This document shows positions 3,553 to 58,175 of a stretch of 64,000 nt of DNA, in pieces. Location: positions 73,045 to 137,044 of the forward strand of contig JACPGU010000003.1 of assembly GCA_016188915.1 (NCBI GenBank). The letters are read 5' to 3'. The notes under the pieces are model-generated. The model was not told the origin of the DNA. It made no database searches and saw only the letters and a program-made list of their open reading frames with translations. Source of the stretch: Candidatus Microgenomates bacterium. GTDB lineage: Bacteria > Patescibacteriota > JACPGU01. Made by a program: the position numbers and the translations under genes. Each line of letters begins with the position of its first letter. Position 1 is the first letter of the stretch.

Positions 3553-4383
3553 ATGTTTAGGAAAACGTGGGATTTTTTGAAGAATAATTTTCCAGTTTGG
3601 CTAAAGAACCTCTTGGTTTTTTCCATACTGGCGATTATCATGATTGGAATCTTCAGGTTCGGCAATGCCTTGGCCGTGTTTTTGGTCTTTCGATCAATAG
3701 CCAAAAGCATTGCTTTCAATTCGGGATTACCGGATTGGATCGCCTACTTGATGGCAATTCCTCCAGTAGCGATGCTGGCTTACGGGATGAAGATGTCTTT
3801 TTCTTTTTCGGCAAAAAAACGAAGAATAGGCTACGCCCTCTTGTGTGGTTTTTTCTTTGTCCCCATGATGATAATGGGGTTTATCAGCAAAGACCATGTC
3901 TATTATCCCGATGGCCGACCGGCGAAATGTTACGCCGCTACACTAACGGGATATGAGTATGTCTCTTGCGAATGGAAGGTTCACCCTGTTTTTGGGACGG
4001 CAGTAAAGCCTGTTGTTCCAGATATCATTCATGCTATATGGGCGCAGGAACGCCAAGTGCCGGCGGTGGAGAGAATCGTTCCAACGAAAGACACTCGTTT
4101 TTATACGACTGATGGACAACCCCTCATCTGGTTTTATCAAAGACCGGATGGCAGGATAGAACTTTTCGGTCGACCCGGCTATCATCCGCAATTTGGCAAT
4201 GTTCAATTGCAGCCGGCTACCAGTGAAATTGTTTTGAAAATTTTTGAGCATTTGGAAAAAGAAGAGAGGAATATGGTCATTTTCTCCAATGACTCAAAAA
4301 AGCAAGACGAAATCTCATCTTCCAGCACAAGGGAGCTACAAAAGCTTCGCGATCTTTTCGTCACGATTGGGGGTGATAACTAA
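3553..4383 (+). CDS. Polytopic membrane protein, hypothetical (276 aa)
   Basis: Several hydrophobic segments in the first ~120 aa, soluble C-terminal half. No motif recognised. Confidence 0.5.
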   Translation: MFRKTWDFLKNNFPVWLKNLLVFSILAIIMIGIFRFGNALAVFLVFRSIAKSIAFNSGLPDWIAYLMAIPPVAMLAYGMKMSFSFSAKKRRIGYALLCGFFFVPMMIMGFISKDHVYYPDGRPAKCYAATLTGYEYVSCEWKVHPVFGTAVKPVVPDIIHAIWAQERQVPAVERIVPTKDTRFYTTDGQPLIWFYQRPDGRIELFGRPGYHPQFGNVQLQPATSEIVLKIFEHLEKEERNMVIFSNDSKKQDEISSSSTRELQKLRDLFVTIGGDN

Positions 4384-4585: not shown

Positions 4586-4884
4586 GGCTGACCCATCGAG
4601 GGGGAAATAACCGAAGATGCCAGCACGAAACTTATCTGCCGGTCTTGAATCAGGCCAGTGGATCATTGCTCCGCTTTCTCGCTTGCGAGTAGCGGAGTTT
4701 TTTTATAGCATCTCAGACCAAATCTATGGGCGGGAAACCCATAAAGCTTCATTGAGAAGGTAAGAATATTTGCTATAATTGAACAATTTTGCTATGATAT
4801 GGTAGTTAGGTAGGAGCTACAAGTGTACTTTAATTTTTTTAAAAAAATCAAAACGCATATGTTTTGCGGAGGAGAGATTCAACC

Positions 4885-6051
4885 ATGGGGAATAAAACTC
4901 TCAGTATTCTCAAAAGCATTTTTGGCATCATTTTATTTCTTCTCTTAGACGTCGGTTTCGGTCTAATATTAGCTTTTTTGGCAGGGGCATTATTCGCTGG
5001 TCTATTCCTGGGGCTTGATTATTCCTATGATGCTCCCCTCAGTACCATGTTTATAGACGCGTGGCTGTTTTGCACAACACCTTGTAGCATGGTCCTCTTC
5101 CCTATAGTCGGATTGGCCTTCCTTGATTACGCCCAAAATTTTTTGGACAGCAGTAGTAGCAAAAGCGTGCGAAAGCAGTCCATGCGGCTTGCGGGAGTAT
5201 TCGCCATAGCCATGAGCATAATCTCTATCTTGATCTTTATTTTTTCTAGCAATCGCCTTCTTGCTACTGGCTATATAGCTATCGGTTTCTGTGTGGTCTG
5301 GATTATCTGCTCAATTATGGTTTGGCCTTATGACGGAGATTATTTTATGAAAAAAGACCGTTATCAGCAGCCGAATCAGGAAAAAATCACCTTTGACTCT
5401 TATATTAACCTCCCCAAGTGGACATGTTTTGGCATTTGTCTGGCGATGTTGGCGCTCAATATTGCCTATCCCATCAATCTCAGGTTGATACCTGAGCATA
5501 CGACCGCAAGGGTCAAAGAGGATAGGGCAGATGAAAGAGCCGAGCGTCCTCCAACTCCAGGTAGCCTAAGTGGAAAAATCCAGAATCTCGTTTCTGTTCA
5601 GAAGCAATTAGAGGCGCAACAAAAAGAGATCTCTCGCGTTAAGGGAGAATTCTTACAAGAAATCGATTCTCATAAGGCGGATGTTGATGGTAGGTGCAGA
5701 CAGACGCAATGCTCGCTGAAGTCTCCGACCACCATGAACGATCCTGTCATTAATTCTGCCTTACGCCTTATTCAGAAGAAGCGCATCTATGTTTCTGCTC
5801 TGGACAAGATGTGGTATCAAATGGAACAGGCGAGGATGGAGAATAGTTTTCTCACCGAATCGGCAAAGGCCGACTCAAAATGGCTAAAAGTTGCCAAAAG
5901 TAAGGAGTCGGCAGAATTGGTAGAAAAGATTGACAAAATTATCAAAGAAAGCGTTGTCAGCCCTGACCTTTCTACTGAGACTATGGAAAGATTAGGAGGA
6001 AAGGGGCAAAGCCTGGAAAGCATTCTCGGAGAAATACTAGGTGAGCCCTGA
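4885..6051 (+). CDS. Membrane-anchored protein with conserved C-terminal helical domain (paralog of 2515..3531)
   Basis: RBS ggagg then ATG 4885. Multiple TM helices. C-terminus LIQKKRIYVSALDKM...FLTESAKADSKWLKVAKS...ELVEKIDKIIKES matches the 2515 product. Confidence 0.6.
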   Translation: MGNKTLSILKSIFGIILFLLLDVGFGLILAFLAGALFAGLFLGLDYSYDAPLSTMFIDAWLFCTTPCSMVLFPIVGLAFLDYAQNFLDSSSSKSVRKQSMRLAGVFAIAMSIISILIFIFSSNRLLATGYIAIGFCVVWIICSIMVWPYDGDYFMKKDRYQQPNQEKITFDSYINLPKWTCFGICLAMLALNIAYPINLRLIPEHTTARVKEDRADERAERPPTPGSLSGKIQNLVSVQKQLEAQQKEISRVKGEFLQEIDSHKADVDGRCRQTQCSLKSPTTMNDPVINSALRLIQKKRIYVSALDKMWYQMEQARMENSFLTESAKADSKWLKVAKSKESAELVEKIDKIIKESVVSPDLSTETMERLGGKGQSLESILGEILGEP

Positions 6052-16149: not shown

Positions 16150-16300
16150 AACCCTCTTGCTTTTTGGTAAAAATTGTGCTACATTGAATACGTTAAATCT
16201 GTCTAGGCGACAGCGAAAAACCCTGCCTCTTGTGAGAAGCGGGGTTTTTCATGTCTTATCGCTAGGACACGACGTTCGACATCGTGTCCTAGCGAGCTTC
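16150..16300 (+). promoter_or_regulatory. Structured intergenic region: promoter-like element, short transcript ending in an intrinsic terminator (16221-16249), and a 14-bp-stem palindrome (16259-16295)
   Basis: Extended -10-like tgctacatt at 16177-16185. Hairpin ccctgc-ctcttgtgagaa-gcgggg then ttttt. Perfect palindrome tcgctaggacacga-cgttcgaca-tcgtgtcctagcga. Second promoter ttgtca...tgctatgat ahead of ORF 16366. Confidence 0.35.
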
Positions 16301-16365: not shown

Positions 16366-17190
16366 ATGAAAAAGATAGTTCTTTTCTCTATCGGGATTTT
16401 GCTGGCTTCAGCGTCCCTGTTTGTCGTCCCAGCCCAAGCCTATATCTCCGGTTATGCTTACGAATTCGTAGATCAGTCGGTCTATCCGACCAATCTTAAT
16501 CCTAACGAAACGACCAATGTTTGGATTGAAATAAAAAATATTGGCACTGCCACTTGGCGCAACAGCGGTGATTATCCGATTCGCCTGGGCGCCGGCTCGG
16601 AATACGGCAACGAGAATCAACAAAGAGATTATTCTTCCGAATTTTATGATTCGGCCACCTGGCTTTCCGCCAATCGTCCGACCGCTATTTTACATCCGGA
16701 GATTCGTCCAGGTTGGCACACTAGATTTCAATTCAATATCAAAGCGCCTAGTAATAATGGTACCTACAAAGCCTACTTTACTCCGGTGGTGGACGGCAAG
16801 GCTTGGATGAAAGACATCGGTATCTTTTGGCAACTTACGGTGGGTAGCACGGATAATTCTGACACTAATAATACGAATAATCAGAACACCAATAACACGA
16901 ATCAGTCGGGGGCAAATATCACGGTCACCTCTCTTACTTTGAGCCCCACCGCTCCCTTGACTATCAGAACTGGCGATACTTACAATTACACTTTGACTGC
17001 CATTTATTCTGACGGTTCCCAACAGGATGTGACGAGCATTGCGGTTTGGGATGTTTCTTATGACACTGGCACGGGCAATGTCTATCCGGCGGGTCGTTTC
17101 ATCGCCGGATCAATGGGTACTTGCTGGGTGACAGCCACATTCGGCGGGAAGAGCATAAAGTCGGCCTTGATTACGATAGCGGGGTTGTAG
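16366..17190 (+). CDS. Secreted protein: signal peptide, conserved ~130-aa N-terminal domain (paralogous to N-terminus of 21390..24941), Asn/Thr-rich linker, C-terminal Big_2 (bacterial Ig-like) domain
   Basis: Signal MKKIVLFSIGILLASASLFVVPAQA. NVWIEIKNIGTATW...RDYSSEF...ANRP.AILHPEIR.GWHTRFQF.IKAP...GTYKAYFTPVVDG..WMKDIGI.WQLTV is shared with the 21390 product. C-terminal ...YTLTAIYSDGSQQDVTSIAVW resembles Big_2. Confidence 0.7.
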   Translation: MKKIVLFSIGILLASASLFVVPAQAYISGYAYEFVDQSVYPTNLNPNETTNVWIEIKNIGTATWRNSGDYPIRLGAGSEYGNENQQRDYSSEFYDSATWLSANRPTAILHPEIRPGWHTRFQFNIKAPSNNGTYKAYFTPVVDGKAWMKDIGIFWQLTVGSTDNSDTNNTNNQNTNNTNQSGANITVTSLTLSPTAPLTIRTGDTYNYTLTAIYSDGSQQDVTSIAVWDVSYDTGTGNVYPAGRFIAGSMGTCWVTATFGGKSIKSALITIAGL

Positions 17191-17195
17191 GACTA

Positions 17196-17700
17196 CTACG
17201 AATTACGAATAAATACCGAATTTACAAATTACGAATTCATAAATTGTATACAAACATACAAATGCAGGACAAGGCATTTAGCGGTGACAAAGTAATTTAT
17301 CCCGAGCTAAGCTATGAAATAATGGGCTGTATCTTTGATGTCTATAACGAAGTTGGCCATGGTTTTTCTGAAAAACACTACTATGGCGCAATCGAAAAAG
17401 CCTTTGTCGCAAAGGGGTTTTTATGCAAAAAACAAGTATATGCCAAATTAGTTTATGATAATAATATTGTGGGTAAATTTTTTTTAGATTTTTTAATAAA
17501 TGATAAGATCGTGGTTGAATTAAAAATAGGAGAATATTATGGTAGAAAAAATATTGATCAAGTTTATCAATACTTAAGAGTTAACGATTTGCGATTGGGG
17601 ATACTTGTGAATTTTACTCGTTCTGGTGTAAGATATAAAAGAATAGTCAATATTGTTTAATTCGTAATTTGTAAATTCGGTATTTATTCGTAATTCGTAG
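17196..17700 (+). mobile_element. 505-bp cassette: GxxExxY/PD-(D/E)xK gene bracketed by perfect 42-bp terminal inverted repeats
   Basis: IR-L 17196-17237 (ctacgaattacgaataaataccgaatttacaaattacgaatt) is the exact reverse complement of IR-R 17659-17700. The cassette sits between the stop of 16366..17190 and the RBS of 17720..18337. Confidence 0.6.
17262..17660 (+). CDS. GxxExxY-family (PF13366, PD-(D/E)xK nuclease fold) protein, 132 aa
   Basis: YPELSYEIMGCIFDVYNEVGHGFSEKHY...DFLINDKIVVELKIGEYYG matches the family often found in 23S rRNA intervening sequences. The upstream part of ORF 17121.. is read-through of the IR, not coding. Confidence 0.7.
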   Translation: MQDKAFSGDKVIYPELSYEIMGCIFDVYNEVGHGFSEKHYYGAIEKAFVAKGFLCKKQVYAKLVYDNNIVGKFFLDFLINDKIVVELKIGEYYGRKNIDQVYQYLRVNDLRLGILVNFTRSGVRYKRIVNIV

Positions 17701-17719
17701 GAATAGATGGGAGGTTATC

Positions 17720-18337
17720 ATGAAACCTAACAAAGGGGACTATATTGACGGTGATGAGAATTGGATTCATACAGAAGTATTAGGGCATAAAAAAAAGAGA
17801 TCTGGGCTATTCTCTAATCTGATAGTAGCTATTGTTTTTGTGGCAGTAATAGTTTTGGTGGTTTTGGCTTTCCAGAATCTTTTTTCCAAAAACGATCTGT
17901 CTAATTTGGAAAATCTGGACAAAATAAACAAAGAAAAAACAGAGGATAAGGCGCCGGCCGAAGAGAAAAAAGAAGAACCGCAAGAATTAAGATACAAAGT
18001 AAAAGCAGGCGACACATTGGCCTCTATCGGTGCGGAATTTGCCGTAGAATGGCAAAAAATTGCTGAAAAAAATAGCCTTGCCGAACCCTACGCTCTAGAG
18101 GTGGATCAAGAGCTGATTATCCCGGGTGTTATGGCGCCAAAAGAAGAGGTAAAAACAGAACCAGCACCAGAGGAGGTAACTTCTCCCGATAATGGCAAAA
18201 CTTATACTGTCCAGCCAGGCGATACTTTAGCTGGAGTGGGTTTGACGCTTAATCTAGAATGGCAAAAAATCGCTGAGTTAAACAGTATCTCCGCTCCTTA
18301 TGCTTTAGAAGTAGGACAGGTGCTGAAATTGCCATAG
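17720..18337 (+). CDS. Membrane-anchored protein with two LysM domains
   Basis: TM helix, then YKVKAGDTLASIGAEFAVEWQKIAEKNSL...LIIP and YTVQPGDTLAGVGLTLNLEWQKIAELNSI...LKLP. Confidence 0.7.
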   Translation: MKPNKGDYIDGDENWIHTEVLGHKKKRSGLFSNLIVAIVFVAVIVLVVLAFQNLFSKNDLSNLENLDKINKEKTEDKAPAEEKKEEPQELRYKVKAGDTLASIGAEFAVEWQKIAEKNSLAEPYALEVDQELIIPGVMAPKEEVKTEPAPEEVTSPDNGKTYTVQPGDTLAGVGLTLNLEWQKIAELNSISAPYALEVGQVLKLP

Positions 18338-18391
18338 AGCTATTATCTTTTTGCTAACTATCCACTTTTAACTATCGATTCTTGTCTAGAC

Positions 18392-18928
18392 CTAAAATGT
18401 TTGTTCCGAACCTTCTTCCAGGGTCTCTCTGTCGGGCAGGTCTATAGTGCCATCGAGAGAAGTATCGGGATCCTGTTTCCCCCAATGGGGGATAGGCGAG
18501 GCATATTCGTTCTGAATAGCCAGAGCTTTGTTGAGACTGGTCAGCTGAGCTTCCAGTGATCCAATCATAATCAAAGCTTGCTCATACTGGATAAAAAGAT
18601 TATGGTAAAGCGAGCGGTAATCTATCACCGTTTCTTCATTGCGCTTGGCGATAGGAGGGGGACTCTCAGCCATGATTTCTTTAATCGGACGGGGCATTGA
18701 AGAGGCAGCGGGTAGCGTGGGTCGTACAGGAATGGCCTTATTTTTTTGATAAGGCTTCCTACCTCTTTCTGGTTTTTTCATTTGGTTAAGATTTTTTTCC
18801 TCAATTCTATATTCTTCACCCTTGGCGCCATTTACTAGGCGCGCTCTTAGGCGACCAGCTTTGATATAGCGGCGGATGCTTTTTTCCGATGTTTTGAGAA
18901 AATTGGCTGCTTGCTGGACGGTGAGCAT
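18392..18928 (-). CDS. HTH (excisionase/MerR-like HTH_17) DNA-binding protein with Pro-rich linker and C-terminal helical region
   Basis: MLTVQQAANFLKTSEKSIRRYIKAGRL is typical of helix-turn-helix_17 domains. Confidence 0.5.
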   Translation of the reverse strand: MLTVQQAANFLKTSEKSIRRYIKAGRLRARLVNGAKGEEYRIEEKNLNQMKKPERGRKPYQKNKAIPVRPTLPAASSMPRPIKEIMAESPPPIAKRNEETVIDYRSLYHNLFIQYEQALIMIGSLEAQLTSLNKALAIQNEYASPIPHWGKQDPDTSLDGTIDLPDRETLEEGSEQTF

Positions 18929-19170
18929 ACTAGAGAATTATGAGTTATGAATTATGAGTTGGGGAATGTGGATAATGAATTGTTAATTACAAATTATCAT
19001 AACCACCTTTTTTGTCTAGACTGGTTTTTTCAACAATAAATTAACGATGGACACATTGGACAGATTAAGGCTGGACAGATATAATAACCTTAGACAATTA
19101 ATTTCTAATTAACCTAACCCAGATATTTTTTAGGTCAATTAGAAATTAGATCAATTAGAAATTTTTACAA

Positions 19171-55499: not shown

Positions 55500-57449
55500 A
55501 TGTTAAAGAATTTTTATCGTAAACTGCCCTTGAAATATCGTCGAGATATAAAATTTTTTTATTACTCTTTTTTTAGGTTTACGGAAAGCTTAAAGAAAAA
55601 ACCAAAATTGCGGGATATACCTGATGGGCCGAAGATTTCTGTGGTGGTGCCGGTTTTTCGGCACGAAAGGTATTTGCGGGAGTGCATAGATTCTATTCTA
55701 AGCCAAAGCTATACGAATTTTGAATTAATTTTAGTGAACGACGATCCTGATAATAAGGAGATAGAGAAAATCTTACGAGAGTACGAGAACAATCTTAGGG
55801 TAAAAATTTTGCACAATGAGAGTAATATCCATGTTTCCGAGAGCTTAAACAGGGGCATCAGAAAATCTACTGGAGAGTACGTCGCTTTTGTGGACTGTGA
55901 TGATGCTTTGTGCCCGTATAGTTTGCAAGAAGTGGTAAAATATATTTTGGAAAACGGCTCTTGGCCAGATTTTATTAGCACGAAATACGTGGTTATCAGC
56001 GAAAAAGGGCGACTGATTTGTTGTTATAATAGACCGAAAAACCCTAATATTTTTCAAAATATGTGGGCGAGTCATTTAAAGGTGATAAGACGAGATGTTT
56101 TTGAAAAGATTGGCTATTTTGACCCAAAATGGAGCGGTATTCAGGACTATGAATTTGCTTTGCGGGCAGAAAAAAATGGTTGCCAGATCCATTATTTACA
56201 AAAATATTTATACAAATACAGGGAGCATGCCGAAACCTATACTACGCAAAAATTGAAATCGCAGTATGAAAGGTCGGATGCCCTGAAAGAACTTTACGCA
56301 CTGGATAAGAAGCTAAAAATCCTCTATCTAATCACGCAATCCGAGTGGGGTGGGGCACAGAGGTATGTCTACGATCTCGCGACAAATATGGTGCGTGATT
56401 TTGAAGTGGTGGTGGCGGGAGGGGGGGAGGGGCATTTGTCGGAGAGACTGGAACAGACGGTAGTGCGGTTTGTGGCCTTGAAGCATTTGATTCGTCCTAT
56501 TAGACCCTTTCGCGATTTGCTGGCGTTTTTTGAAATATTAACGCTTTTACGGCGGGAAAAGCCGGATATTCTGCATCTTAATTCCAGCAAGGCAGTAGTT
56601 TTGGGATCTTTAGCGGGACGTCTTTCTCGCTTCCGGCCAAAGATCATCGCCACTGCGCACGGTTTGGCATATCATGAACCAGGCTCAATATGGAAAAAAC
56701 AATTTTATAAACTTTTTGAAAAAATCGGTTTTGGTTTGGCGGATAGGATAATTTGTGTTTCCCGTTTTGATTATGGCAGTGGAATAAAAAATCATGTTTT
56801 TAAGGCCTCAAAAGCTACCATTATCTATAACGGTCTACTTGCGAAGGTGTCACCTTCGCAAGTAGACGTGAAGGCCAAGTTTTTGCATAAAGATGAAGCA
56901 TGTGTAGTTGGCACTATCGCTAATTTTTATCCCAACAAAGGCCTGGAGTATTTATTGCGAGTAGCCAAACTGATTCAAGACAAGCGTTCTGATATTAGCT
57001 TTGTTGTAGCTGGAGATGGAGTAGGGAGGCGAGACATAGAATCGCAAATCGCAGAATTGGGACTGAAAAATGTGAAGCTTATAGGATTTATCGACGATAC
57101 GGAAAAATTTCTGCAAGAATGCGACATCTTCGTCTTATCATCGCTCAAAGAAGGTTTACCTTATGTTATTTTAGAGGCGATGGCGATGGGCTTGCCTATT
57201 GTAGCAACAAAAGTCGGAGGAGTGCCGGAGATGGTGGACGACAATGTAGCCGGGTTTCTTGTCTCCCCGGCCGATTCAGAAGCACTGGCTGAAAAAATAG
57301 AAATATTAGCTAATGATTCTTCGCTCTGTCTTCGTTTCGGCCAAAGTGGCGCTAGAAAATTGCGGATTCAATTTACCCCAGACAAGATGCTTTGCGACAC
57401 AAAAAGTATCTACATAAAACTACTTGCGAAGGTGACACCTTCGCAATAA
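55500..57449 (+). CDS. Bifunctional GT2 (N-terminal) - GT4 (C-terminal) fused glycosyltransferase; carries two in-frame REP-like palindrome insertions
   Basis: GT2 ISVVVPVFRHERYLRECIDSILSQSYTNFELILVNDD. GT4 EGLPYVILEAMAMGLPIVATKVGGVPEMV. REP copies at 56824-56856 (encoding LLAKVSPSQVD) and 57419-57448 (encoding the C-terminal LLAKVTPSQ). Confidence 0.7.
   Translation: MLKNFYRKLPLKYRRDIKFFYYSFFRFTESLKKKPKLRDIPDGPKISVVVPVFRHERYLRECIDSILSQSYTNFELILVNDDPDNKEIEKILREYENNLRVKILHNESNIHVSESLNRGIRKSTGEYVAFVDCDDALCPYSLQEVVKYILENGSWPDFISTKYVVISEKGRLICCYNRPKNPNIFQNMWASHLKVIRRDVFEKIGYFDPKWSGIQDYEFALRAEKNGCQIHYLQKYLYKYREHAETYTTQKLKSQYERSDALKELYALDKKLKILYLITQSEWGGAQRYVYDLATNMVRDFEVVVAGGGEGHLSERLEQTVVRFVALKHLIRPIRPFRDLLAFFEILTLLRREKPDILHLNSSKAVVLGSLAGRLSRFRPKIIATAHGLAYHEPGSIWKKQFYKLFEKIGFGLADRIICVSRFDYGSGIKNHVFKASKATIIYNGLLAKVSPSQVDVKAKFLHKDEACVVGTIANFYPNKGLEYLLRVAKLIQDKRSDISFVVAGDGVGRRDIESQIAELGLKNVKLIGFIDDTEKFLQECDIFVLSSLKEGLPYVILEAMAMGLPIVATKVGGVPEMVDDNVAGFLVSPADSEALAEKIEILANDSSLCLRFGQSGARKLRIQFTPDKMLCDTKSIYIKLLAKVTPSQ
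56824..56856. repeat. REP-like palindrome copy 1 (perfect 16-bp arms, 1-nt spacer), inside the GT2-GT4 gene
   Basis: tctacttgcgaaggtg-t-caccttcgcaagtaga. Confidence 0.8.
57419..57448. repeat. REP-like palindrome copy 2, at the 3' end of the GT2-GT4 gene and 11 bp upstream of the RAYT start
   Basis: ctacttgcgaaggtg-a-caccttcgcaataag. Confidence 0.8.
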
Positions 57450-57458
57450 GATAAAATC

Positions 57459-58157
57459 ATGCAACGGCAAATAGAACAAAAACAAAAAAATGCCGATTAT
57501 GGCATATTTCATATCTATAATCGTGGGACAGAAAAAAGAGATATTTTTTTAGATATGTACGATTTTAAAAGATTCTATGATGGTATACGGGAATTTAATA
57601 CTACTATACCGGTTGATCTACGTGAAAGAATACGGGAAAAAAAGAAACGCGAAGGTGACACCTTCGCAAATAGTGGGCTAGCAAGAGGAGAAAGGCTGGT
57701 AGATGTGTTGTGTTTTTGTTTAATGCCCAATCATTATCATCTTATTTTAAAGCCCCTCATAAAGAATGGTGTGACTGTATTTATGCGTAAATTAGCCACT
57801 GGCTATTCATCTTATTTCAATCGTAGATATGAAAGAAGTGGTAGACTATTCCAAAATGTTTTTAAAAATAAGGAGATAGATTCTGACGAATCATTTTTGT
57901 ATGTCTCTGCCTATCAACACATCAATCCTATAGCTGCTAAGTTGGCGAAAAAACCATCAGATTGGCTATGGTCTAGCTATAAACACTTTATCGGGGTAAG
58001 GAATGATGATATACTGCTAGGGGTAGAAAAAATATTGAGCGTTACATCACTTGAGTATAAAAAATATGTTGAGGGATTAATAGATGAAAATTGGTTTAGC
58101 AACCATAAAAAAAATTTACTTTTAGAGACAGACGATGATTACTACTTGCGAAGGTGA
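57459..58157 (+). CDS. IS200/IS605-family Y1 (HuH) transposase, REP-associated type (RAYT)
   Basis: YGIFHIYNRGTEKRDIF N-terminal strand. HuH motif LMPNHYHLIL. C-terminal Tyr-containing helix SAYQHINP. An internal REP copy encodes an inserted loop KKREGDTFANSG. Confidence 0.65.
   Translation: MQRQIEQKQKNADYGIFHIYNRGTEKRDIFLDMYDFKRFYDGIREFNTTIPVDLRERIREKKKREGDTFANSGLARGERLVDVLCFCLMPNHYHLILKPLIKNGVTVFMRKLATGYSSYFNRRYERSGRLFQNVFKNKEIDSDESFLYVSAYQHINPIAAKLAKKPSDWLWSSYKHFIGVRNDDILLGVEKILSVTSLEYKKYVEGLIDENWFSNHKKNLLLETDDDYYLRR
57646..57670. repeat. REP-like palindrome copy 3 (shorter arms gcgaaggtg/caccttcgc) inside the RAYT ORF
   Basis: aacgcgaaggtg-a-caccttcgcaaatag. Confidence 0.7.
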
Positions 58158-58175
58158 CACCTTCGCAAGTAATAA
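58139..58175. repeat. REP-like palindrome copy 4, overlapping the RAYT stop codon and lying just upstream of alaS
   Basis: ttactacttgcgaaggtg-a-caccttcgcaagtaataa. Confidence 0.8.

Follow-up and report, generated by a model that had tools for sequence, protein, structure and literature searches.

A GxxExxY nuclease gene between inverted word arrays in a gene spacer of a Candidatus Microgenomates bacterium: a proposed intervening sequence-type cassette outside rRNA

The element described here occupies positions 17196-17700 of a 64,000-nt stretch of DNA from a Candidatus Microgenomates bacterium (the window; all coordinates are positions in it on the + strand, except where another contig is named). 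It consists of one small open reading frame (ORF) of the GxxExxY family, which encodes a predicted PD-(D/E)xK nuclease, enclosed by two inverted arms and placed between two protein-coding genes. The locus is made up of the following features:

16366-17190, + strand: upstream host gene, encoding a secreted Ig-like protein (weak N_BRCA1_IG match)
17196-17244, + strand: left arm, perfectly complementary to the right arm over 17196-17237 and imperfectly over 17238-17244, with five inward-reading word units
17262-17660, + strand: GxxExxY / PD-(D/E)xK nuclease gene, 132 aa (TIGR04256, PF13366; motif G34-E37-Y40)
17652-17700, + strand: right arm, reverse-complementary to the left arm (without mismatch over 17659-17700) and overlapping the ORF stop codon (17658-17660)
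17709-18337, + strand: downstream host gene for a LysM protein with its ribosome-binding site (GGGAGG 17709-17714, ATG 17720, coding sequence 17720-18337)

Sequence comparison establishes an exact 42-nt inverted match between 17196-17237 and 17659-17700, and extending the match inward to 17244/17652 gives arms of 49 nt that are 94% complementary. A preliminary description of this DNA had reported these perfect repeats and their internal repetitiveness, and both hold: the left arm carries TACGAAT-type words at five positions (TACGAAT at 17197, 17204 and 17230, TACCGAAT at 17214 and TACAAAT at 17223), with a core spacing of 7-11-8-7. The unit is also wedged between its neighbours as described, with the left arm beginning 5 nt past the upstream stop codon (TAG 17188-17190) and the right arm ending 8 nt ahead of the LysM GGGAGG (17709-17714). 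When 17196-17700 is cut out of the window, a 24-nt spacer with an intact ribosome-binding site remains. RNA folding recovers the stem that had been proposed, the arms closing 42 bp around the ORF with a minimum free energy of -144 kcal/mol versus -102 kcal/mol for shuffled sequences (z = -7.7). The GC content is 27-31% inside the unit versus 41-49% around it, and this low GC content together with the stable stem supports a real, foreign unit.

Within the 64-kb window, a search for further copies of the 42-nt repeat returns only the two arms, even with up to 3 mismatches allowed, and 100 dinucleotide shuffles of the window contain no match to the 42-mer. TACGAAT is not enriched outside the arms in the window (it occurs at about chance level), and no dispersed copies of the word are found there. 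No target-site duplication is visible at 17196/17700, and a promoter scan of the arms on the + strand yields no convincing promoter. A search of Rfam over 17100-17800 gives nothing above threshold, the single match being at chance level (E = 0.095).

The assignment of the ORF to the GxxExxY family is confirmed by matches above cut-off to TIGR04256 (97.8 bits, cut-off 35, profile positions 1-116 of 116) and to PF13366, PDDEXK_3 (96.3 bits, cut-off 22). Residues E37, D76, E86, K88, Q100 and Y104 are invariant across 30 aligned homologues. These homologues begin near ATG 17262, which is therefore taken as the true start, and the 179-aa entry of the ORF track (TTG 17121) is spuriously extended at its N-terminus by reading through the left arm, as had been suspected. 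The stop codon (TAA 17658-17660) shares 2 nt with the right arm, again as first described, and no Shine-Dalgarno sequence is visible upstream of the ORF. An AlphaFold2 model of the 132-aa protein (predicted local distance difference test score, pLDDT, 91.7) has a restriction-endonuclease-like alpha/beta fold, for which the best Foldseek matches are Cas4 SSO0001 (E = 1e-5), lambda exonuclease and, more weakly, tRNA splicing endonucleases, with template-modelling (TM) scores of about 0.5; a sequence search of PDB chains gives no match. For the cassette proteins of two related loci (L014 and L022), the ratio of nonsynonymous to synonymous substitution rates (dN/dS) is 0.06. Judged from these sequence comparisons, the GxxExxY protein is clearly functional, under strong purifying selection and with its catalytic residues intact.

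Profile scans of the ORF match no transposase family, including PF01797 (Y1 HUH, IS200-like). No family among the PADLOC defence-system models matches the protein at E <= 0.1, and tblastn finds no match in 50,697 phage records and only four in plasmids. In the literature, the function of PDDEXK_3 is given as 'Unknown' (Steczkiewicz et al., 2012).

The arm-bracketed arrangement recurs well beyond this locus. The first three homologue loci are unrelated to one another (ATP-grasp/polA, NTP-transferase/SBP and dprA/topA), and each has inverted arms made of TACAAAT, TACGGAT or TACGAAT units. The family was sampled as 80 GxxExxY loci from one-genome-per-species contigs of the Candidate Phyla Radiation (CPR), Bacteroidota, Planctomycetota, Chloroflexota and others. 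Arms were scored by aligning the 130 nt upstream of a gene to the reverse complement of the 130 nt downstream, and were called at scores of at least 24. By this measure arms flank 61 of 77 GxxExxY genes (79%), versus 10 of 197 neighbouring ORFs (5%) and 6% of mismatched flank pairs, and the scores of GxxExxY genes and neighbouring ORFs differ strongly (Mann-Whitney p = 5e-27). In each arm a 7-8-nt word occurs three to five times, reading forward in the left arm and as its reverse complement in the right one. Elements differ in their word (TACGAAT/TACAAAT/TACTAAT, CACGAAT, CACAGAT, ACAGGAT, ACGCTGAT and CACGGAT), and the 7-11-8(-7) spacing of the window arm is found again in many TACNAAT elements. 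Bracketing by arms is a property of the family across phyla. One arm-bearing GxxExxY locus comes from the draft genome of an isolate, Flagellimonas olearia CL-SS4 (L059), and Treponema saccharophilum (L193) is another cultured carrier. On two complete replicons of cultured strains, a GxxExxY gene is flanked by weaker repeats of a single word.

A different nuclease gene is found in a comparable setting on contig L021 (4500-4790), where a 96-aa GIY-YIG nuclease gene lies between different inverted repeats, CCTTCTCGTCATTCTGGCTTGGCCAGAATC and its complement. This case suggests that further small nuclease families live in repeat-bracketed cassettes.

The window derives from a metagenome-assembled genome, in which chimeric joins can create inverted repeats, and the unit could be read as an assembly artefact or as a fragment of a misassembled rRNA operon. 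Two independent Logan assemblies contain an identical upstream gene and end 30 nt into the left arm, which provides independent support for the junction between this gene and the arm. Both contigs break inside the arm, so that no empty site is visible in either; the break is expected because the perfect repeat is longer than the k-mer. The window shows no rRNA similarity that would point to a misassembled rRNA fragment, and the same design is found in about 60 other GxxExxY loci, including the isolate draft genome, with weaker repeats on the two complete replicons. An artefact is accordingly given almost no credence.

The preliminary description had called the GxxExxY family typical of 23S rRNA intervening sequences (IVSs), and this claim is not borne out. 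Searches by blastn with the Escherichia coli rrn operon find no rRNA similarity in the window or at any of 172 loci, among them the 80 GxxExxY loci, none of which lies inside rRNA; Rfam over the window reports one tRNA only. The protein encoded by 23S rRNA IVSs belongs to the four-helix-bundle S23p family (PF05635) and not to GxxExxY (PMC4990558, PMC11270868). In a survey of insertions in CPR rRNA, the ORFs listed are of the LAGLIDADG, GIY-YIG and 23S_rRNA_IVP types, and PDDEXK goes unmentioned (PMC11270868).

The two kinds of element are nevertheless alike in design. ORF-bearing 23S IVSs of Coxiella burnetii and Leptospira are units of about 430-500 nt with a promoterless sense ORF that encodes about 120-130 aa. 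Their complementary ends pair into a long stem, of 28 bp in Coxiella versus 42 bp in the window element; heptamer repeats occur in the stem region, and the sporadic distribution of the units suggests horizontal transfer (PMC4990558). In the Coxiella IVS, tandem GACAGAT heptamers lie in the 5' stem region ahead of the ORF (PMC4990558), and the same heptamer flanks the GxxExxY gene of L051. The window cassette differs from these IVSs in lying between protein-coding genes rather than in an rRNA helix and in carrying a PD-(D/E)xK nuclease (PF13366) rather than a four-helix bundle (PF05635), and its family differs in being constrained in the repeated words rather than in the duplex. The origin of rRNA intervening sequences is still regarded as open (PMC4990558).

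Genes for the IVS protein family are themselves found in such arms. Two PF05635 genes surfaced among the high-scoring 'neighbours' of GxxExxY genes, and of the PF05635 genes collected from metagenomes 62 of 74 reach an arm score of at least 24, with period-8 NCNAAAT arrays; this set shares one word type, and mismatched flank pairs within it also score high (48% at 24 or above). PF05635 cassettes show the same inward word polarity and the same co-orientation with their neighbours as GxxExxY cassettes. On contig L087, a PF05635 gene in ACAAAT/ATTTGT arms occupies the spacer just upstream of the Ig-like gene; a tRNA-like sequence with a long variable arm (3735-3830) directly follows the right arm of this cassette. 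With PF05635 and GxxExxY genes in alike arms, a single vehicle therefore serves two cargo proteins that are unrelated to each other, and the rRNA IVS seems to be one of its rare special cases. The window element is classed here as an IVS-type cassette that lies outside rRNA and carries a nuclease gene. The earlier characterization of the element as rRNA-IVS-like thus stands in part: the ORF lies in complementary heptamer arms like those of the Coxiella IVS, and PF05635 genes lie in like arms, but the element is not in rRNA and its ORF is not PF05635.

Cassettes are placed flush with the genes around them and read in the same direction. The downstream neighbour is co-directional with the cassette ORF in 48 of 53 cases and the upstream neighbour in 48 of 56, while the left arm starts a median of 2.5 nt after the upstream stop codon and the right arm ends a median of 6.5 nt before the downstream start codon. 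Since cassettes fill operon spacers, there is no room for a promoter or terminator of their own. They also occur inside essential operons, after rpsG and between two subunit genes of a 2-oxoacid:ferredoxin oxidoreductase (POR). An identical GxxExxY gene is present after rpsG in eight samples, and an identical four-helix-bundle gene between the two POR subunit genes in many samples, in each case always at that locus; look-ups of identical proteins, made to find one cassette in more than one place, each gave just one locus. On contig L174, the GxxExxY gene (1726-2196) is directly 3' of rpsG, and its TACTAAT arms fill spacers of 37 and 43 nt. The four-helix-bundle cassette between the oxidoreductase subunit genes lies at 1961-2433 of L182, and six contigs (L182-L187) are base-for-base identical over 1901-2500, cassette included.

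Evidence for movement comes from pairs of cassettes. Those of L014 and L022 are 87% identical and have unrelated flanks, and their homology starts and stops exactly at the outer arm ends; L071 and L072, from different phyla, show this pattern as well. These comparisons show, albeit indirectly, that arms and ORF travel as one unit bounded by the outer arm ends. The earlier alternative of a small mobile cassette that has colonized a protein-coding locus fits these near-identical cassettes in unrelated flanks as well as the absence of the ORF from three relatives, described below.

Relocation to unrelated flanks, terminal inverted repeats and the existence of ORF-less derivatives would also be expected of a conventional insertion sequence, or of a transposon resembling a miniature inverted-repeat transposable element (MITE) whose transposase is encoded elsewhere. 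This explanation is nonetheless very unlikely. No target-site duplication is found across the family, where boundary windows share 3.70 nt versus 3.49 nt in mismatched controls, and the ORF matches no transposase family. The window holds a single copy and the arm core is absent from two large sequence collections, and the strong bias in orientation and position is unlike random transposition.

ORF-less derivatives are best seen in a Saccharibacteria type IV pilus operon (L034, 1-3900), in which every spacer is occupied by a GxxExxY cassette or by a hairpin made of word arrays. Two cassettes of this contig bear ORFs, with the words TACGAAA and CGCTGA, and two ORF-less hairpins (66-155 and 548-622) match them in arms and termini. 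The ORF of the cassette at 1706-2185 is truncated (77 aa) and is probably a pseudogene. In the wider family, further arrays of a cassette's own word lie within 3 kb in 9 of 37 cassettes. By analogy, this is the autonomous/non-autonomous pattern of repetitive extragenic palindromic (REP) sequences and REP-associated tyrosine transposases (RAYTs). Word type also tracks protein clade across host phyla, and the two cassettes of L034 represent two protein clades with two different words, which argues against a single host reader.

At the Ig-like/LysM locus itself, three relatives in which the upstream protein is 54-58% identical keep the gene order Ig-like, LysM, HTH_17 (- strand), further genes and MnmA. 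The GxxExxY ORF is absent from the Ig-like/LysM spacer in all three, and each Ig-like orthologue is followed directly by the spacer of the LysM gene. The arrangement is therefore not an ancient fixed feature of the locus, and no conserved copy of it was seen there among the syntenic relatives. The comparison with an empty site that had been suggested is answered in part: the ORF is missing from all three, and the spacer is not plainly empty, as it holds repeat hairpins. These have the following composition:

L087 spacer: words GTTAAAAAT / ATTTTTAA, fold z = -1.25 (weak)
L089 spacer: words ACAAAT / ATTTGT, fold z = -3.2
L090 spacer: seven copies of CCTGCCTTGC versus four of GGCAGGCGGGC, nested in ATCAAA / TTTGAT, fold z = -2.5

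In L090, the GC-rich hairpin (4830-4945; -74 kcal/mol) consists of seven tandem CCTGCCTTGC units followed by four GGCAGGCGGGC units and lies inside AT-rich ATCAAA/TTTGAT arrays; the annotation pipeline called a 53-aa ORF over part of it. In the window, a hairpin at 19099-19163, just 5' of the mnmA start (19171), in which TAATTTCTAATTAACCTAA pairs with TTAGGTCAATTAGAAATTA and a second TTAGATCAATTAGAAATT follows, may be an ORF-less repeat hairpin like those of the relatives.

Hairpins in the spacers of relatives raise the alternative that a host operon-punctuation hairpin, with a role in mRNA stability or translational control, captured the nuclease ORF in its loop, so that the arms would be host sequence. 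Two of the three spacers fold better than shuffled sequences (L089 and L090, not L087), every spacer of the L034 pilus operon holds an array, and heptamer direct repeats before start codons are known and unexplained (PMC4679880). Set against this, the homology between L014 and L022 takes in both arms and stops at their outer ends with the flanks unrelated, a given protein clade has the same word type in different phyla whereas two cassettes of a single genome have different words, and the arms share the low GC content of the ORF and not that of the host flanks. A captured host hairpin is thus judged to be distinctly unlikely.

Another reading treats the unit as an invertible DNA switch, in which recombination between the 42-bp arms flips the ORF and allows its expression only when it is co-oriented with the operon. 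Perfect inverted repeats around a promoterless ORF and short-read graphs that break inside the arm are what such a switch would show, but the break is expected anyway from a perfect repeat that exceeds the k-mer. In about 90% of the family, the cassette has the orientation of its neighbours. No recombinase is adjacent, and relatives without the ORF keep the HTH_17 gene in synteny, leaving this reading extremely improbable.

What selection acts on was assessed with word cores that were defined on the left arm only and then scored in the right arm. Complementarity between arms is 96% in word cores versus 68% in the spacers between them (Fisher p = 1e-38). In an orthologous pair (L009/L020) with saturated synonymous sites (proportion of synonymous differences, pS = 0.86), the arms are still 87-88% identical, and units agree at variant positions more often within an element than between different elements (0.74 versus 0.53; 0 of 2000 permutations). 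The sequence of the word is thus under selection in every unit of both arms, which goes beyond the needs of a duplex. At the sequence level this points to the existence of a sequence-specific reader of the word. The A-rich polarity of the left arm was considered as strand-specific evidence and rejected, because an inverted repeat reads alike from both strands; all that the polarity reveals is an inward direction of the word in both cargo families.

These results bear on a purely RNA-level analogue of the IVS, in which the arms would serve only to form the duplex, RNase III would release the ORF RNA and separate the cistrons, and the heptamers would be a by-product of slippage. The perfect 42-bp stem with its z-score of -7.7 agrees with this reading, as do cassettes that are flush with and oriented like the flanking genes and the presence of the IVS protein family in alike arms, and ORF-bearing 23S IVSs cut by RNase III provide a precedent (PMC4990558). 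Pairing across the family, however, is concentrated in the word cores. Many ORF-less hairpins fold as 6-8-bp word/anti-word helices with internal loops between them and would be poor RNase III substrates. Mismatches between arms show no excess of G·U over A·C (57 versus 47, p = 0.38), most of them being transversions, and hence give no positive sign of selection on the RNA duplex. A duplex, moreover, needs no repeated sequence, yet the units of one element are alike and stay conserved where synonymous sites are already saturated. With the words conserved rather than the pairing and with no G·U bias, a reading as a processed stem alone is incomplete, and the RNA-level analogue is considered unlikely.

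Several other known systems share single traits with the cassette. Correia elements of Neisseria are MITEs that are co-transcribed with genes, form an arm duplex that is an RNase III substrate, duplicate TA on insertion, reach hundreds of copies and contain no ORF. The cassette is similarly small, bounded by inverted repeats and located in gene spacers, but its family shows no duplication, and the window member has a conserved ORF and occurs as a single copy. Free-standing homing endonuclease genes include a PD-(D/E)xK type, I-Ssp6803I, and homing targets one conserved site. The cassette resembles them as a small, selfish nuclease gene placed without disruption of the host and distributed patchily among phyla. 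It differs in having arms of its own and in its many unrelated sites (dprA/topA, after rpsG, pilT/pilC and Ig-like/LysM); for these same reasons, homing at a fixed site was rejected. An integron cassette was likewise rejected, since inverted arms on both sides and a place between housekeeping genes stand in contrast to a single attC, and no integrase is encoded by the four ORFs scanned with profiles (16366-18928).

Another parallel is the REPtron, a RAYT gene flanked by inverted REP sequences. In both, a single gene lies between inverted copies of a presumed cognate repeat and is wedged between host genes, ORF-less repeat copies occur in other spacers of the same genome (for the cassette family, in L034), and the units are mostly single-copy and sedentary. 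The cassette differs in encoding a PD-(D/E)xK protein instead of a Y1 HUH enzyme, in having arms of three to five short words rather than one palindromic hairpin, and in the lack of dispersed copies in the window. The window also contains a canonical REPtron, with a gene for a 232-aa IS200-like Y1 transposase (RAYT, PF01797) at 57459-58157. It is flanked by palindromes of about 30 nt (CTACTTGCGAAGGTGTCACCTTCGCAAGTAG) at 57420-57451 and 58141-58171, and further palindromes lie at 56834-56865, in the 3' end of a glycosyltransferase-like ORF (55500-57449), and at 57649-57674, inside the RAYT ORF.

The arms also recall intergenic heptamer repeats, which include the short tandemly repeated repetitive (STRR) heptamers of cyanobacteria. 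Shared traits are two to six copies of a 7-nt word, an intergenic location, a fixed orientation and an end a few nucleotides before the downstream start; the heptamer repeats differ in that they are described as direct repeats which have no inverted partner and enclose no gene. TAACTGA repeats of this type occur in Beggiatoaceae, Cyanobacteria and Bacteroidetes and end about 1 nt before start codons, which is unexplained (PMC4679880). A keyword search of the text of that paper finds no link between heptamer repeats and GxxExxY or four-helix-bundle genes.

With moderate confidence, we interpret 17196-17700 as an IVS-type, single-gene selfish cassette, with arms that are arrays of recognition sites and a protein that probably reads them. 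The orientation of cassettes, their flush placement and the lack of promoter-like sites in the arms suggest that the cassette has no promoter of its own and would be transcribed by read-through from the host operon. Following the precedent of IVSs, the arms would pair in the transcript and bring the upstream stop codon and the downstream start codon back together, and the insertion would thereby be tolerated much as an IVS is tolerated in rRNA. By the same precedent, the 42-bp duplex would be long enough to serve as a substrate of RNase III. The repeated words would be recognition sites for the protein of the cassette itself, and the nuclease may act on its own arms and on ORF-less copies in the way that a RAYT acts on its flanking REPs. 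Such action would account for spread, maintenance and relocation without duplications.

A broader proposal is offered more tentatively, as a possibility that we would not expect to hold in full. It regards GxxExxY cassettes as an unrecognized class of mobile element in which the nuclease would read a 7-nt word, use the arrays as transposon ends and mobilize or maintain ORF-less hairpins. The 23S rRNA IVSs, the four-helix-bundle genes and the heptamer arrays would then be instances of the same vehicle, tolerated through pairing of the arms in the transcript.

A number of observations weigh against a selfish cassette that is mobilized by its own nuclease. To our knowledge, there is no precedent for a 132-aa nuclease acting alone as a mobility enzyme, no known transposase is associated with the cassette, and target-site duplications are lacking. 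The non-nuclease four-helix-bundle cargo uses alike arms, and the nuclease is therefore not required in cis for the design. Identical proteins are always found at one locus, from which it follows that cassettes are mostly sedentary. A second copy of the arm core is found neither elsewhere in the window nor, as a 28-nt core, in the metagenome_contigs and viral_contigs collections, so that there is no sign of recent movement of the window copy in particular. Apart from an identical protein recorded from a Candidatus Microgenomates contig, the closest relatives of the nuclease are only 55-57% identical. The spacers of the syntenic relatives (145-314 nt) hold ORF-less hairpins of other words, and the present state of the Ig-like/LysM spacer may have arisen by turnover in situ or by insertion into a pre-existing hairpin. 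The link between word and protein clade could come from co-inheritance of arms and ORF alone. Finally, the missing G·U excess yields no positive indication that pairing of the arms in the transcript is under selection.

Further repeats lie near the host genes of the locus. Two consecutive hairpins (16215-16250 and 16259-16295), probably terminators, separate the convergent upstream gene from the promoter-like site that precedes the Ig-like gene. Directly upstream of the divergent HTH_17 gene (18392-18928, - strand), a 14-nt direct repeat occurs in tandem at 18935-18962 (GAATTATGAGTTAT / GAATTATGAGTTGG) and is a possible operator.

In the accessible literature, no paper links GxxExxY/PDDEXK_3 or IVS protein genes to repeat-array cassettes, although comments of database curators may hold such contexts. 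The design has practical consequences for annotation and assembly: arms cause false N-terminal extensions and break short-read assemblies, and their sites include essential operons, where they lie downstream of rpsG, between the subunit genes of POR and among pilus genes. GxxExxY/PDDEXK_3 proteins and the four-helix-bundle '23S rRNA IVS protein' form very large and patchily distributed families that have had no known function since the 1990s, and the window element is a clean example of a shared, cargo-agnostic cassette design. If the interpretation given here is correct, rRNA IVSs would be a special case of a much commoner element of operon spacers, the enigmatic intergenic heptamer repeats would have an explanation, and the word arrays would be concrete candidate substrates for biochemistry on both protein families.

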